Below, one piece after another: positions 3,175 to 56,775 of a DNA stretch of 64,000 nt. The stretch's first letter is position 1. Each line of letters opens with the position of its first letter. The position numbers and the translations under genes were made by a program. This DNA is from Escherichia phage teqdroes. The stretch lies in the sequence record NC_054932.1; one strand, given 5' to 3'. The notes under the pieces were generated by a model that saw only the letters and a list, made by a program, of their open reading frames with translations, did no database searches and had not been told where the DNA came from.

Positions 3175-3704
3175 TCAAATAATCCAATAATATTGCCAAT
3201 TCCAGTTATTGGACCATTAGGGCCAGGAATTGCTAAAGTTGTAAAAATATCATTTGCCCATTTTAAAACGAATGCTGGCATCTCAAGAAAATTAATTTCT
3301 TTAACTTCATCATTGACCTTAAGTAAGCATTTAGATAACATATCGCTCACCGTTAAAAATTGTTCAAATTTTCCAGGAGGTCTAAAATAAAATGTATTTC
3401 CTTGGTATTGAAATTCCAATCTTTGGCATACATAGACATCATTAATGTCATAAGTATAGCCATCTATTTCTTTACGAGATTTAATCTTTCCATTAAATTC
3501 CAATAAATGAATAGAAACGAAATCAACTTCTGCCGGTGATAAATTCGGACAAATAGAATCAATAAGAAGTTTTAAATTTTCATCAGGACCTTTAACATCC
3601 TTTAAAATGTTATAATGTTTAAGACCCATTTTAGGAATAGAAACTTCTTTATTGCTTATTGGAAGAACTACTTTCTTCAGTGGTAGTATCAGATTTAAAT
3701 TCAT
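3171..3704 (-). CDS. 28: baseplate hub distal subunit gp28
   Basis: 177-aa ORF between 27 and 29 as in T4; 5' end overlaps the 3' end of gp27. Confidence 0.8.
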
Positions 3705-4824
3705 TTTTAACCTTAACTGGGTCTATTGTTTCCAGTTTCGTTGCATTAGTGAACATATAAAGATGAGTTACTGAATTATTATTTGATAATTCATGGATAA
3801 CTTCATCAACGTAAAATTCTGTTTTAAATTGGTTTTTACTATCATTAAAAATAATTTTAACACCAGGAGTCAAGTTAAAATTACCGACAGTAGAACATTT
3901 AGCATAGCCGTCATATTGTGCCATAGTTTGAAGACGAATAGCTTCTTCATATCCATTCCTATAAGTCATTTCAGAATAAGCACCTGACCTTGACACTACA
4001 ATAGAGTTTTCGCCCTTTCCTGTAGTAATCATTGGCAGTGAAGAATCTAAAAATGAATGAGCATAGATAGTAGCATTTTTCATTGGGTCACGTTTGTGAG
4101 GATTCGATTTAGTCAACCAAACAAAATCATATGCTAATGGGTATTTTAATTCTTGGACAAATTGACCTATTAAAGATGGCTCACCGACAATCATTGGATA
4201 TGGTTCTTGATTTATCATCATATCATAGTCCATCATGTTAACTCCCATGATGTCTTGCCACACAAATACAAATTTGTCACTTCCCACAGCTAGAGCAACT
4301 TCTCTTACATATGACAAATAGTTTTCAAATGTGCTAGTCCATGGAATATCAGGAACATAAGCATTTATAGCATTTATTGCTGGAGTTAATAATGTGCGAT
4401 CTTGATAAATGACACCAAGCATTTCTTTTATAGATTCACCTGCATCAGGGAAAAATGGTCTACCAAATTTAAGATTTTCTATAGAATGAATAGTTCCCAA
4501 TTCAATAGCAATGATGTTATCGCCTTTTGAATCTACTGACACTGAAAAATGCTTACATCCATAAATTCGTGTTTTAACATTATTAATATCATTTGCATTA
4601 GCTACAGAAATCTGAATTATTTCATTTCCATCCATTTTTGTATGGATGTTTTTAGAATCATAAAACTGCAGCATTCCTTCATTTCGGCCATAAAGAGAAT
4701 CCCGCATAGTTAATGTAGTAATAGTAGCAGCTAATTCAACAAATCTATTATTACTCCAAGCGTCGTAGCTATCAAATAATTTAACGCTGAGATTTGGATA
4801 TCCGGGGCGTTGCAACATACTCAT
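3649..4824 (-). CDS. 27: baseplate hub subunit gp27
   Basis: 391-aa ORF, T4 gp27 length and synteny. Confidence 0.85.
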
Positions 4825-15807: not shown

Positions 15808-16617
15808 TTAGAAACGAGATGCGACTTTCGCATATACACTTACAATATCTTCTGCACCCTGTGCAGCTTTATCTTCTACAGCTTCAGTGACGAAATTCAG
15901 TCCGGCTGCTTCAGTATCAGGAGTATTTATACTCTCAGTAATAGTGCTTTCATCTTTATTAGATTTCTTCACCATTTCTACGATTGCACTCAATTTACTT
16001 GAGAATGCATCTGAATAATCCATACCTTCGACCAGAGCAGAGACTTTTTCTTTTTGAGACTCAGTCAGATCTTTAGTACTTTCGCTCAATGCCACTTCAC
16101 GCTGCACATAATTGATATATGCGTCACGCTTATTGAGTTCTTCGAACAGACGAGCTGATTCTTCTTTATGTTCTTGCAGCTCTTCTTCCATTTCAGCTAC
16201 AACATCAACCGATTCTTCTGGAACAACAACGTTGTGTTCAACAAAGAGCTCTTTTAATCCACCAAGCATGGATTCAAACAGTTCGGCTTTGATGCCTTTA
16301 TCAACTGCTAATTTATTTTCAGCGAGCCATTCTTTCGCAAGATGGTCAATGAATTTAGAAGCTTGCTCAGCGATTTTCTTCTCAGCTTTTTCTTCGGCTT
16401 CTTCTTTATTTTTTTCTACTTCTTCTTCTGCTTTTTCAGCAATTTTAGCGATATGAGATTCAGCTAATTTAACGGCGTGCTGCTTGACGGTAGCTTCGAA
16501 TACAGTGCCGAAAGTTTCTTTTGCTTCCGGAGAAATATTAACTGATTCGAAAATACTATCAAGAGCAACGGAAGCATCAATTTTCTGCGCTTCGGCAATC
16601 AGTTGTTCTTTAAGCAT
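15808..16617 (-). CDS. 22: prohead core scaffold protein gp22
   Basis: 269-aa Glu/Lys/Ala-rich helical ORF between 21 and 23. Confidence 0.9.
   Translation of the reverse strand: MLKEQLIAEAQKIDASVALDSIFESVNISPEAKETFGTVFEATVKQHAVKLAESHIAKIAEKAEEEVEKNKEEAEEKAEKKIAEQASKFIDHLAKEWLAENKLAVDKGIKAELFESMLGGLKELFVEHNVVVPEESVDVVAEMEEELQEHKEESARLFEELNKRDAYINYVQREVALSESTKDLTESQKEKVSALVEGMDYSDAFSSKLSAIVEMVKKSNKDESTITESINTPDTEAAGLNFVTEAVEDKAAQGAEDIVSVYAKVASRF
15924..15931 (-). promoter_or_regulatory. candidate late promoter for gene 23 (TATAAATACTCC on the minus strand, inside the gene 22 coding region)
   Basis: Exact TATAAATA on the minus strand about 135 nt upstream of the gp23 ATG. Confidence 0.4.
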
Positions 16618-16644: not shown

Positions 16645-16652
16645 TATTTATA
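16645..16652 (-). promoter_or_regulatory. late promoter core TATAAATA upstream of gene 22
   Basis: Reverse complement of tatttata in the 3' end of gene 21. Confidence 0.45.
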
Positions 16653-17286
16653 ACGCTTTTTTCATGGCCTCTGCGAGAGCCATATAGGCGTCATCGGCAC
16701 TTGTATCGGCTTCCGCCGTCTGTGATTCGGTAATTTCCTTAGGAGTTACCCATGCATCTGGAGCACTTGGACCCCATACTGCATCAACACCTACAGTTAA
16801 TTTGAATCCTTCGTTTACGATACGATAACCTTTATTTGTGTCAGTCAATGAACCTAATCCACGAGAAGAAACTCCTGGAATCCATCCGGCACGAATATTA
16901 GCTGCTAATTTATCTCCAGGACCATGGTCACCTTCAATAACACGAGCTCGTCCGTATACGTCATTTCCTTTCCACCACATATCTTCTATAATGATAGCGG
17001 CTTGCATTGGGTCAACATTAGCGCGTGGAGGATGATTTAATTCTCCGAGAGCTTGTTTAGTTAAAACTTGCTCATTAATATAGTCTTTTACCGCTTTTTC
17101 CAATATACGTTTTGGATAAAGACGTTTATTTCTATTGACGACTTCCGCTTGCATGAATATTCCTTCGATGTATAAACCCGGTTTTAAACCTAAGTCTTTT
17201 CCATCATGAGATTCAAGCATTGGCACGCCATCAATAATTTCGCCAGGTTGACCCCAAGTTTCAATTAGTAATTGGGGTTCATTCAT
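16648..17286 (-). CDS. 21: prohead core protease gp21
   Basis: 212-aa ORF, T4 gp21 length and position. Confidence 0.9.
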   Translation of the reverse strand: MNEPQLLIETWGQPGEIIDGVPMLESHDGKDLGLKPGLYIEGIFMQAEVVNRNKRLYPKRILEKAVKDYINEQVLTKQALGELNHPPRANVDPMQAAIIIEDMWWKGNDVYGRARVIEGDHGPGDKLAANIRAGWIPGVSSRGLGSLTDTNKGYRIVNEGFKLTVGVDAVWGPSAPDAWVTPKEITESQTAEADTSADDAYMALAEAMKKAL

Positions 17287-46288: not shown

Positions 46289-46576
46289 ATGAAAACATTT
46301 AAAGAATTTACTTCTACAACTACCCCGGTTTCTACCATTACCGAAGCTACTCTTACTTCTGAAGTTATTAAAGCAAATAAAGGACGAGAAGGTAAACCAA
46401 TGATTAGTCTGGTTGATGGCGAAGAAATCAAAGGTACTGTTTACCTAGGTGATGGGTGGTCTGCTAAAAAGGATGGTGCTACAATCGTTATCTCTCCTGC
46501 CGAAGAAACTGCGTTGTTTAAAGCTAAACACATTTCTGCAGCACATCTCAAGATTATTGCTAAAAATCTTTTGTAA
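46289..46576 (+). CDS. ipI: internal protein I (IPI), capsid-packaged anti-restriction protein
   Basis: 95-aa ORF; mature part ATLTSEVIKANKGREGKPMISLVDGEEIKG... recognised as T4 IPI*; N-terminal propeptide ends in an I-x-E gp21-type site. Confidence 0.85.
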   Translation: MKTFKEFTSTTTPVSTITEATLTSEVIKANKGREGKPMISLVDGEEIKGTVYLGDGWSAKKDGATIVISPAEETALFKAKHISAAHLKIIAKNLL

Positions 46577-46661: not shown

Positions 46662-46895
46662 ATGAAAACGTATCAAGAATTTATTGCTGAAGCTGCTGAT
46701 GTAAAAGTTGAGTTTATTTACATTGGTAAGAAAGATAAAATGGGCGAAATGCCTCATGGAGTTCTTCGTGATGCATTAGATAATTTCGGTCAACTCGGTG
46801 GTGAAGAGTTTGGTGATTATTTTGTTATCTATGGACCAGAAAAAGTCATCGAGAAATGGGCTGATAAATATAAATCAATTTTTCGTAAAAAATAA
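46662..46895 (+). CDS. internal-protein-like small protein with capsid-targeting-type N-terminus (MKTYQEFIAEA)
   Basis: ATG 46662 after GGAG; 77 aa; the track ORF begins upstream at a GTG. Confidence 0.6.
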   Translation: MKTYQEFIAEAADVKVEFIYIGKKDKMGEMPHGVLRDALDNFGQLGGEEFGDYFVIYGPEKVIEKWADKYKSIFRKK

Positions 46896-47945: not shown

Positions 47946-48018
47946 TGGGAATTAGCCAAGTTGGTAAGGCACTGGATTTTGATTCCAGGATGCAAAGGTT
48001 CGAGTCCTTTATTCCCAG
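47946..48018 (+). tRNA. tRNA-Gln: tRNA-Gln (anticodon UUG)
   Basis: Cloverleaf folded by hand; acceptor TGGGAAT/ATTCCCA; CCA not encoded. Confidence 0.75.
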
Positions 48019-48019
48019 C

Positions 48020-48106
48020 GCGAGAATGGTCAAATTGGTAAAGGCACAGCACTTAAAATGCTGCGGAATGATTTCCTTGTGGGTTCGAGTCCCACTTCTC
48101 GCACCA
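48020..48106 (+). tRNA. tRNA-Leu: tRNA-Leu (anticodon UAA), long variable arm, CCA encoded
   Basis: Cloverleaf folded by hand; acceptor GCGAGAA/TTCTCGC. Confidence 0.75.
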
Positions 48107-48111
48107 AATTT

Positions 48112-48185
<74 letters not shown>

Positions 48186-48231
48186 ATTTATGACTCGTCG
48201 TGAGACGCTCAGTTCTTTATTAGGGACTGAT

Positions 48232-48840
48232 ATGCATTTTTATCTTTATAAAATAACAAATAAAATTAATAATAAAATTTATATTGGTGTGCATTCTACC
48301 GAAAATTTAGATGATGGATATATGGGTTCTGGTAAATTATTAAAAAGAGCCCAAGACAAGTATGGTATAGAAAATTTCTCTAAAGAAATATTAGAGTATT
48401 TTGATGATAAAGAATCTATGCTTGAAGCCGAGAAAAATATTGTCACAGAAGAGTTTTTAAATAGACCAGATGTGTATAATTTAAAACTTGGCGGAGAAGG
48501 TGGATGGGACCATATAAATAATTATCCTATGACAGATCAGCAACGCGAATTAATTTCATTGGGTGTTAAAAAGGCACATTCTAACGGAAAATTAAAAGGA
48601 TGGTCTTCAAATGGATTAATGAAGAATGGCTTTGCTGGTAAAAATCATTCTCAAGAAGCTAAACGTAAAATAGCAAAAGCAAACGAAGCAAAAGTTTCTG
48701 CGGATGAAAGAAAAAGAAGAATAGAAATTTCTAAATTATATGATTTTTCTAAGCGTGGTGAATTATCTAAATATGCTAAGCATATTGGCGTAAGTCATAC
48801 TCAAGCAAAAAGAATTCTAAATCAAATTAACAATATATAA
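48232..48840 (+). mobile_element. segB: GIY-YIG homing endonuclease (SegB-like) inside the tRNA cluster
   Basis: FYLYKITNKINNKIYIGVH...YMGSG GIY-YIG motif; track ORF opens at 48190 but ATG 48232 has an AGGGA ribosome-binding site. Confidence 0.75.
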
Positions 48841-48846
48841 ATATTT

Positions 48847-48936
48847 GGAGGCGTGGCAGAGTGGTTTAATGCACCGGTCTTGAAAACCGGCAGTCGCTCC
48901 GGCGACTCATAGGTTCAAATCCTATCGCCTCCGCCA
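48847..48936 (+). tRNA. tRNA-Ser: tRNA-Ser (anticodon UGA), long variable arm, CCA encoded
   Basis: Cloverleaf folded by hand. Confidence 0.75.
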
Positions 48937-48942
48937 GTTTTT

Positions 48943-49018
48943 GCTGATTTAGCTCAGTAGGTAGAGCACCTCACTTGTAATGAGGACGTCGGCGGTTCGA
49001 TTCCGTCAATCAGCACCA
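48943..49018 (+). tRNA. tRNA-Thr: tRNA-Thr (anticodon UGU), CCA encoded
   Basis: Cloverleaf folded by hand. Confidence 0.75.
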
Positions 49019-49019
49019 A

Positions 49020-49094
49020 GGCCCTGTAGCTGGAAGGTTCAAGCAAGCGACTCATAATCGCCAGATGGTGGTTCAATTCCACCCAGGGCCACCA
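49020..49094 (+). tRNA. tRNA with CAU anticodon (Ile2/lysidine-type or Met)
   Basis: Cloverleaf folded by hand; identity between Ile(CAU) and Met cannot be decided from sequence alone. Confidence 0.6.
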
Positions 49095-49106
49095 AATTAT
49101 GAATTA

Positions 49107-49193
49107 GGGGAGTTATCCCGTAGAGGTAGCGGTGTGGACTGTAAATTCATTGTCATTGCGACTCGGGTGGTTCGACTCCACCACTCCCCACCA
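49107..49193 (+). tRNA. tRNA-Tyr: tRNA-Tyr (anticodon GUA), type II long variable arm
   Basis: 87 nt with CCA; anticodon loop CTGTAAA; T-arm GGTGG-TTCGACT-CCACC; acceptor GGGGAGT/ACTCCCC. Confidence 0.55.
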
Positions 49194-49197
49194 ATTT

Positions 49198-49272
49198 GGA
49201 TGTGTAGCTCAATGGTAGAGCGATCGCCTGTTAAGCGATTGGTTATAGGTTCGAATCCTATCACGTCCGCCA
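49198..49272 (+). tRNA. tRNA-Asn: tRNA-Asn (anticodon GUU)
   Basis: Cloverleaf folded by hand; anticodon loop CTGTTAA. Confidence 0.6.
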
Positions 49273-49386
49273 AATTTGTGACAACTGTCACATTAATATC
49301 TACTTGACGCGATTATAGGGGTTGAACTGATCACTCTTCTCTTAATTTCGTGTGAAGACATCTTGATTGTTGGAGTAGGTATTAAT

Positions 49387-49462
49387 GTGGCCGTAGTTCA
49401 GTTGGTAGAACTCGAGATTGTGATTCTCGTAGTCATGGGTTCGACTCCCATCGGTCACCCCA
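49387..49462 (+). tRNA. tRNA-His: tRNA-His (anticodon GUG)
   Basis: Cloverleaf folded by hand; anticodon loop TTGTGAT. Confidence 0.6.
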
Positions 49463-49466
49463 ATTA

Positions 49467-49542
49467 CGGGGCATAGCTCAGAAGGAAGAGCAAGGACCTT
49501 CTAAGTCCTAGGTCGTAGGTTCGATCCCTACTGCCTCGACCA
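49467..49542 (+). tRNA. tRNA-Arg: tRNA-Arg (anticodon UCU)
   Basis: Cloverleaf folded by hand; anticodon loop CTTCTAA. Confidence 0.7.
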
Positions 49543-54592: not shown

Positions 54593-55123
<531 letters not shown>

Positions 55124-55126
55124 AGT

Positions 55127-55163
55127 TGTTTACTTTCTCCTAGAATTGTGATAGTATATTCAC
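55127..55163 (+). promoter_or_regulatory. early promoter with the -10 in a TGTGA/TCACA stem-loop
   Basis: GTTTAC then TGTGATAGTATAT. Confidence 0.5.
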
Positions 55164-55182
55164 AGTTACTTGGAGGGATAAA

Positions 55183-55599
55183 ATGACTCGTATTAATTTG
55201 ACTTTAGTATCTGAACTTGCTGATCAACATTTAATCGCAGAATACCGTGAATTGCCGCGTGTTTTTGGTATAGTTCGTAAGCATGTGGCAAACGGTAAGC
55301 GCGTTAAAGATTTTAAAATATCTTCTAAATTTATTTTAGGTTCTGGTCATGTTACTTTCTTTTACGATAAGTTAGAATTTTTGCGAAAGCGTCAATCGGA
55401 CATTATAACGGAATGCTTAAAACGCGGGTTCAGTATAAAAGATACTGAAGTTCCTGACATCAGCGATATTCCAGTAGAATGGAAAAATGATTATAATCCA
55501 TGCAAATCAGCTATTAAATTGAGTCAACAACGACTTGATGAAAAAATTTTAATGAAACCACATTGGTATAAGTATTACGGTAAAAATATTTACATTTAA
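55183..55599 (+). CDS. denV: endonuclease V, pyrimidine-dimer DNA glycosylase
   Basis: 138 aa, [17 protein letters not shown]...; recognised as T4 DenV-like. Confidence 0.9.
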
Positions 55600-55608
55600 A
55601 GGAAACAT

Positions 55609-56082
55609 ATGAAAACATATCAAGAATTTATCACTGAAGCAGCTATTAATTCTCAAATTATTGCTGAATCTTTTACTGATCTTTTGAAATTTAAAAAAGG
55701 TCAAAAAATCACTGCTGTATTGGATGATGGTACAGAAGTTGAGATGGATGTACAGGGATATAATTATGCAGTAGATGGAAAACTGTATAATAAATCTCAT
55801 GCTAAATTTGATTCATTTGACGACTTTGTTAATACAGTTGAAGATGAAAAAACTCGTAGATCCATTGCAACTGGTGATGCTAAGGTTCTTATGGCACATG
55901 GTCATGAACGCATTCGCGCTAAACAGAATAAAATGGGTGAAGATAATTTTGCATTAGTTGGTTATCAATCTGGTAAACAAACTTATGGCTATCAACGTAC
56001 TGCTACCATGTATAACAAAAATGGTAAAATTGCCTTTGTGAATAGTAAAGGTTCTATTCAGTACGTTAAATCGTTCAAATAA
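55609..56082 (+). CDS. internal-protein-like protein (157 aa) with canonical capsid-targeting N-terminus MKTYQEFITEA
   Basis: N-terminal 11 residues match the T4 internal-protein targeting sequence; AAGGA ribosome-binding site. Confidence 0.6.
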   Translation: MKTYQEFITEAAINSQIIAESFTDLLKFKKGQKITAVLDDGTEVEMDVQGYNYAVDGKLYNKSHAKFDSFDDFVNTVEDEKTRRSIATGDAKVLMAHGHERIRAKQNKMGEDNFALVGYQSGKQTYGYQRTATMYNKNGKIAFVNSKGSIQYVKSFK

Positions 56083-56187
56083 GCAAATAAGAAATATGGG
56101 AACAACCTGGACCTCATGATTCTGTGAGGGATTCCCGCCAACCTGTAATAAGGTCGAGCCTGAGCGCGGTAATGGGTAAATACAGAA

Positions 56188-56775
56188 ATGGAAAATTCAT
56201 GCGCCATGGAATGGCCCAAATTTAGAGATAACAAAATGAGAACATTTTTAACTGGTCCTTATCTATCCCTGATGAATGCTTTTACACACCATTCTGATGC
56301 TAGAGTAGAAGAAATTTGTAAAAACGATTATATCCCACCATTTGAAGACTTACTCAAGCAGTATTGCACACTTCGATTAGATGGTGGCAGACAATCCGGT
56401 AAATCAACTGCTGTGACTAACTTTGCTGCTAATTGGCTGTATGATGGTGGAACAGTTATTGTTCTTTCTAATACTTCAGCTTACGCTAAAATTTCTGCAG
56501 GCCACATTAAAAAAGAATTTTCTCGTTATTCTGGCGATGATATTCGATTCCGCTTATTTACCGATTCTGTCCGTAGTTTTATCGGTAATAAAGGAAGCAA
56601 GTTCAGAGGTTTATCGCTTTCGCGGATTTTGTATATAATCGATGAGCCTGTTAAATCTCCTGATATGGATAAAATTTACGATATTCATATTGAAACTGTG
56701 CACCACTGTTGCAATAGTAAATGCTGCATTGGTGGTATTACTCGTCCACAGTTTTTCATAATCGGAATGCAATGA
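56188..56775 (+). CDS. hypothetical P-loop protein (vs.8 position)
   Basis: 195-aa ORF with Walker A-like GGRQSGKST. Confidence 0.5.
   Translation: MENSCAMEWPKFRDNKMRTFLTGPYLSLMNAFTHHSDARVEEICKNDYIPPFEDLLKQYCTLRLDGGRQSGKSTAVTNFAANWLYDGGTVIVLSNTSAYAKISAGHIKKEFSRYSGDDIRFRLFTDSVRSFIGNKGSKFRGLSLSRILYIIDEPVKSPDMDKIYDIHIETVHHCCNSKCCIGGITRPQFFIIGMQ

Follow-up and report, generated by a model that had tools for sequence, protein, structure and literature searches.

The open reading frame (ORF) downstream of denV in the 64-kb stretch of phage DNA analysed here (the window) is, judged by its sequence, ip4, the gene for the internal protein Ip4 of T2/K3/RB32-type Tequatrovirus phages. That the product is Ip4 and that it is packaged in the virion we hold, taken together, with high confidence, and the best explanation as a whole, in which Ip4 is packaged, processed, injected and likely directed against a host defence, we regard as probable. 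Ip4 is a known protein, named and widely annotated; it is neither an orthologue of T4 IPII or IPIII nor a new kind of protein. The novelty implied by an earlier note on this DNA is not supported, because the protein already carries the name Ip4 or IpIV in T2, K3 and RB70 and hundreds of genomes have it annotated. In T2-type phages this gene is an ordinary component with an existing name, and the window brings no new information on Ip4. Over 2.6 kb, the window is 99.1% identical to Escherichia phage vB_EcoM_G29 (Tequatrovirus).

The ORF begins with ATG and has an AAGGA Shine-Dalgarno sequence 6 nt 5' of the start. The features bearing on its identity, targeting and processing are the following.

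55609..56082, plus strand, stop codon included: ip4 (157 aa; Ip4/DUF7412 internal virion protein), from the ORF and its Pfam and PHROG matches
55609..55638, plus strand: capsid-targeting sequence MKTYQEFITE, residues 1-10, placed by 10/11 identity with the T4 IPII/IPIII N-terminus
55657..55668, plus strand: putative second gp21 site, I-I-A-E(20)↓S, with a near-invariant E20 and LNES in distant family members
16648..17286, minus strand: gp21 prohead core protease, the expected remover of the targeting sequence (Pfam Peptidase_S77, E 1.5e-111)
15808..16617, minus strand: gp22 scaffolding core protein, a component of the prohead core that receives internal proteins (Pfam T4_CASP, E 1.7e-89)
46289..46576, plus strand: IPI-family ORF at the ipI locus, 95 aa, starting MKTFKEFTSTTTPVSTITE↓A (PHROG 4363)
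46662..46895, plus strand: ip6-like ORF at the ipI locus, 77 aa, starting MKTYQEFIAE↓A (PHROG 8111)

The ip4 product matches Pfam PF24183 (DUF7412) over residues 1-157 of 157 (E 5.7e-96), its 319.4 bits lying above the curated cut-off of 27 bits, and, again from end to end, PHROG 3155, "internal virion protein" (E 6e-102). It is 99% identical to UniProt Q38388, "Ip4 [Enterobacteria phage K3]", and 100% identical to T2 Ip4 across the mature part. Ip4 (IpIV) of K3, T2 and RB70 is thus the same protein, with 99-100% identity, equal length and an equal signal, and the neighbourhood alone varies between phages. The orthologue in phage GiZh lies in the same gene order and is labelled "ipIV ... similar to T2 RB70 Ip4", and Ip4 or ipIV labels are also found on the orthologues in AR1, Shfl2, PST and Kha5h. 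When the window protein was compared with BFVD using Foldseek, the sole real structural neighbour was Ip4 itself (Q38388). A sequence search of the PDB found no relative, only a spurious, repeat-summed match to a designed Kelch protein, and a search of NCBIfam gave no match over the cut-offs. As relayed by two papers that cite it (PMC12373910, PMC2839356), Repoila et al. (1994) counted Ip4 among the internal proteins; with reference to that work, T4-like phages have been said to carry "at least 10" internal proteins recognised by their N-terminal signal (Silas et al., 2025, PMC12373910), and more than 30 internal-protein variants were known to Arbiol et al. (2010, PMC2839356).

The targeting signal had been recognised in the earlier note, and its reading holds: the ORF starts MKTYQEFITEA, identical at 10 of 11 positions to T4 IPII/IPIII, and the signal ends at a gp21-type site. 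T4 gp21 cleaves at L/I-x-E. The predicted motif (L/I-x-E plus a small residue) occurs as I-T-E↓A at Ip4 residues 8-11, and E10 is kept in at least 90% of family members, from which we infer that gp21 would cut after E10. When all six frames of the 64-kb window were translated and searched for the pattern MK[TS][YF]x[ED]F, it matched three times, at 46289, 46662 and 55609; it is no chance match, because all three occurrences begin ORFs exactly. BLASTP of Ip4 against T4 IPIII and IPII (NC_000866) aligned essentially the first 11-12 residues, KTYQEFI[AT]EA. This signal-only similarity, together with PF24183, PHROG 3155 and Q38388, agrees with the earlier proposal of a presumably packaged and injected protein distinct from IPI, IPII and IPIII, and the BLAST comparison with known internal proteins that the same note had suggested as a check does not make it an IPII/IPIII orthologue. 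Besides gp21 and gp22, the gp23 major capsid protein and the gp20 portal are encoded in the window.

In the mechanism that we propose, the 10-residue N-terminal signal would send Ip4 into the prohead scaffolding core, where gp21 would remove it after E10 and possibly cut after E20 as well. The mature basic protein (about 16.5 kDa, pI about 9.1) would remain in the head with the DNA and be ejected with it into the cell, where it would most likely serve as a ready-made anti-defence factor for the first minute, one that binds a host nuclease or another early defence and blocks it. Background for such a course comes from T4, whose internal proteins are ejected into the host with DNA (cited in PMC12373910) and whose IPIII is active from the cytoplasm without its signal (PMC9391042). 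Three different type IV restriction enzymes of the GmrSD kind are inhibited by Ip1, Ip2 and Ip3, one by each (PMC12373910). As a class of packaged, processed and injected protein, T4 IPI/IPI*, the inhibitor of GmrSD-CT596, offers an analogy to Ip4, with the differences that IPI lies at another locus, has the signal MKTFKEF... within a 19-residue propeptide, and has an unrelated mature domain of 76 aa. Another parallel is Bas37_0260, a signal-bearing protein unrelated to IPI-III at the ipI locus of phage Bas37, which inhibits McrBC (bioRxiv 10.1101/2025.11.20.689424). It is likened to Ip4 here by description, not by sequence; it sits at another locus than ip4, and the demonstrated role against type IV restriction is its own.

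From these analogies, an anti-defence role for Ip4 seems to us an even proposition. In the one test that has been published, Ip4 to Ip10 were assayed against five further active GmrSD variants, with no reproducible inhibition (Silas et al., PMC12373910). A more specific and more tentative proposal, which we put at somewhat under an even chance, is that Ip4 is an injected inhibitor of a first-line defence beyond the GmrSD variants tested, acting through a fold that has no solved relative. Every injected protein whose target has been solved so far revealed a type IV restriction system or subtype, and Ip4, being widespread, conserved and supported by virion proteomics, is a reasonable candidate for screening.

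How widespread and conserved the family is bears on the kind of target to be expected. Using the mature part as a tblastn query, we found Ip4 in 469 phage records. In 290 of them it is at least 99% identical, including those of T2, AR1, RB6, Shfl2 and Yersinia phage PST, and in another 160, from Klebsiella, Salmonella and Serratia T4-like phages, it is 60-80% identical. A word-indexed search with the mature domain returned 14 clusters (at 90% identity), all phage-like and about 157 aa long. An exhaustive profile search over 1.84 billion representatives (at 50% identity) gave seven family matches, which were signal-bearing phage proteins or fragments. Relatives of the mature domain from bacteria, or lacking the signal, turned up neither in the word-indexed search nor among the 1.84 billion representatives. 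Distant members have a variant signal, MNF(E/K)(Q/D)FLNES, for example MNFEQFLNES or MNFKDFLNES. In sequence terms the family is narrow but deep. Because Ip4 is at least 99% identical in 290 genomes and the family is kept in distant T4-like phages with a variant signal, these data would fit a conserved target common to Escherichia, Shigella, Klebsiella, Salmonella and Serratia hosts, not a strain-specific arms-race partner.

The first AlphaFold2 model of Ip4 was mediocre (pLDDT 74), and adding distant homologues gave a confident one (pLDDT 83.6, pTM 0.78). In the latter, residues 1-20 are of low confidence and flexible, and residues 25-157 fold into a compact alpha/beta domain, for the most part at pLDDT >90. 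Residues 11-18 are predicted to be a flexible linker because their pLDDT is below 50. The confident model had no informative structural neighbour. We also considered Ip4 as an enzyme and dropped this idea: H64, H99 and E111/D112 are invariant in close members and lost in distant ones, which makes an enzyme unlikely and a binding protein more plausible.

An unlikely alternative to the anti-defence role, although the best of those that we weighed, is that Ip4 chiefly fills the head as a basic protein associated with DNA, which neutralises or organises the packaged DNA or aids its ejection and has no specific host target. Several properties are in keeping with it. Mature Ip4 is basic (pI 9.1-9.3, 22 K+R vs 17-18 D+E, about 16.5 kDa as against 17.8 kDa uncleaved), as are T4 IPII and IPIII, and lysines of T4 internal proteins touch DNA phosphates in the head (PMC3012670). 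Across the whole family the invariant residues are G, K, N, Q, Y, T, A, L and V, and the Lys, Asn, Gln, Tyr and Thr among them include none that is catalytic. The weak structural neighbours are small barrels of the Sm/Hfq/L19/Tudor type, many of them nucleic-acid binders, and the high sequence conservation would also suit a housekeeping role.

Packaging itself is best documented for a homologue. In CsCl-purified virions of Klebsiella phages ValerieMcCarty03/04, "gp127/119 internal virion protein" was detected with 66/66 PSM (PMC13119998, Table 3), and the GenBank record identifies gp127 of ValerieMcCarty03 as the DUF7412 gene, whose product is 72% identical to the window Ip4. In the supplementary peptide table of the same study (PMC13119998), the N-terminal peptide TYQEFLNESR occurs once per row and within the reference sequence only, so that the homologue's N-terminal peptide has 0 PSM, which fits loss of the 10-residue signal. 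The next tryptic peptide, LATVGVMTESVGSNLLK (homologue residues 13-29), spans the equivalent of the second site and has 3 PSM in ValerieMcCarty04. Because it was detected, E21 of the homologue (E20 of Ip4) is not quantitatively cleaved in that phage.

These data weigh heavily against a reading in which the signal is vestigial and Ip4 stays in the cytoplasm as an early protein, without being packaged at all. The promoters could be taken to speak for it, since the sole nearby sigma-70-type signal is an early-type promoter 5' of denV and there is no late promoter directly 5' of ip4. However, the homologue is abundant in purified virions, the signal and E10 are conserved family-wide, distant members included, and late promoters 5' of e could read through; we therefore consider this reading highly improbable. 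The elements of the locus on which this turns, and those that relate it to T4, are listed here.

54595..54615, plus strand: two T4 late-promoter boxes, TATAAATA, 5' of e, the nearest candidate source of late transcription
54629..55123, plus strand: e
55124..55182, plus strand: e-denV spacer, 59 nt, an early-promoter-plus-hairpin (PeSL-like) element equivalent to the T4 e-ipIII element
55183..55599, plus strand: denV (endonuclease V), directly 5' of ip4 (Pfam Pyr_excise, PHROG 1183)
55582..55608, plus strand: conserved internal-protein-gene leader with Shine-Dalgarno, AAAAATATTTACATTTAAAGGAAACAT, 27 nt, overlapping the denV 3' end
56098..56190, plus strand: conserved GC-rich element at the 3' boundary of the ip4 insertion, from the window/T4 alignment
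56236..56775, plus strand: vs.8 homologue, 179 aa from MRTFLTGP..., 94% identical to T4 vs.8 residues 40-218 (the C-terminal 179 aa)

Between e and ip4 there is no TATAAATA late-promoter box, and late transcription would reach ip4 by read-through from the boxes upstream of e across e-denV-ip4. The gene order in the window is nudE (54137) - e - denV - ip4 - vs.8 - vs.7, and in T4 (NC_000866) it is e - ipIII - ipII - denV - vs.8 - vs.7. The earlier note had given this arrangement correctly: ipII and ipIII of T4 do lie between denV and e, and in the window e and denV are separated by a promoter only, with the signal-bearing ORF beyond denV. The gene ip4 belongs to the variable e/denV/vs.8 internal-protein locus, one of two such loci, and the denV-ip4 junction exactly as in the window is found in 163 records.

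Both edges of the rearrangement can be placed. The e-denV spacer has an early-promoter-like GTTTAC-N17-TAGTAT and a hairpin, runs straight into the denV ribosome-binding site, and matches the T4 e-ipIII spacer with about 94% identity across 66 nt; the PeSL concept is from PMC2839356. T4 ipII has an identical leader AAAAATATTTACATTTAAAGGAAACAT before it, and T4 ipIII has a shorter form. In the window this leader provides the last denV codons and the stop, giving YGKNIYI* where T4 has YGKAIYA*. The leader overlaps the denV 3' end, and the cassette junction therefore lies inside the coding sequence of the neighbouring gene. At the other side, the insertion ends 15 nt past the ip4 stop codon, at GGGAACAACCTGG, which in T4 abuts the denV stop codon. 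From the leader and promoter alignments it follows that the window differs from T4 through the clean exchange of a cassette at leader and promoter elements that are repeated, which fits the published model of internal-protein shuffling (PMC2839356).

The GC-rich spacer 3' of ip4 had no Rfam match, no tRNA and a folding z-score of -0.03 vs shuffled sequence. The GC-rich stretch as a whole (window 56098..56235; about 64,800..64,940 in T4 NC_000866) is conserved, and such a stretch is unusual for a T-even genome. In the T4 annotation it forms the first 39 codons of vs.8, and the corresponding frame in the window has GTG for ATG, a TAG stop and an 8-nt deletion, so the N-terminal extension of T4 vs.8 is probably not conserved coding sequence.

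Other phages arrange the same genes differently. In T2 (PV648364, 2386..3441 of the region compared), ip4 comes directly after e, and no denV is annotated between e and vs.7. This would agree with the UV sensitivity for which T2 is classically known. The order in Klebsiella Jiaodavirus is e-ip4-ipII-vs.8-like, and one distant metagenomic member of the Ip4 family again lies downstream of a weak Pyr_excise (denV-like) gene. T4 IPII and IPIII resemble Ip4 in their targeting sequence, upstream leader and ribosome-binding site, location in the variable e/denV locus and basic mature protein; they inhibit GmrSD-ECOR21 and GmrSD-ECOR17, respectively, whereas Ip4 did not inhibit the GmrSD variants tested, and their mature domains are unrelated to that of Ip4. 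That the window ORF is a displaced or diverged IPII/IPIII orthologue, with its first 11 residues and the leader before the gene in common with them, has next to no chance of being right, since BLASTP finds no similarity past the signal (IPII, 30% over 76 aa, driven by the N-terminus; IPIII, no further alignment), Ip4 falls in a different Pfam/PHROG family, and in ValerieMcCarty03 the gene for an Ip4 homologue stands next to a separate one for a clear IPII homologue.

In the ValerieMcCarty03 record, the coding sequence at 3580..4161, annotated as "putative IpIII internal head protein", lacks a targeting signal and by inspection is vs.8-like (RLDGGRQTGKT ... FFVIGMQ), and the public record appears to have mislabelled it. 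A metagenomic contig (Logan ERR14707364, 181..2758) has four ORFs that start MNFEQFLNES, MNFQRFLNEA, MSFKKYLDEQ and MKFSEFLNES, one of them a DUF7412 member; this set appears to be the internal-protein array of a distant T4-like phage. Within the 64-kb window there is no signal-bearing IpII or IpIII ORF. The product of the ORF at 46662..46895 is labelled "ip6" in phages VR7 and JK08 and occurs in 244 phage records. From the three signal-bearing ORFs in the window, the phage has Ip1, Ip6 and Ip4. The window also contains a cluster of ten tRNA genes (47946..49542, plus strand), for Gln, Leu, Gly, Ser, Thr, Met(CAT), Tyr, Asn, His and Arg. It differs from the set of eight tRNAs in T4 in that Pro is missing and Tyr, Asn and His are added.
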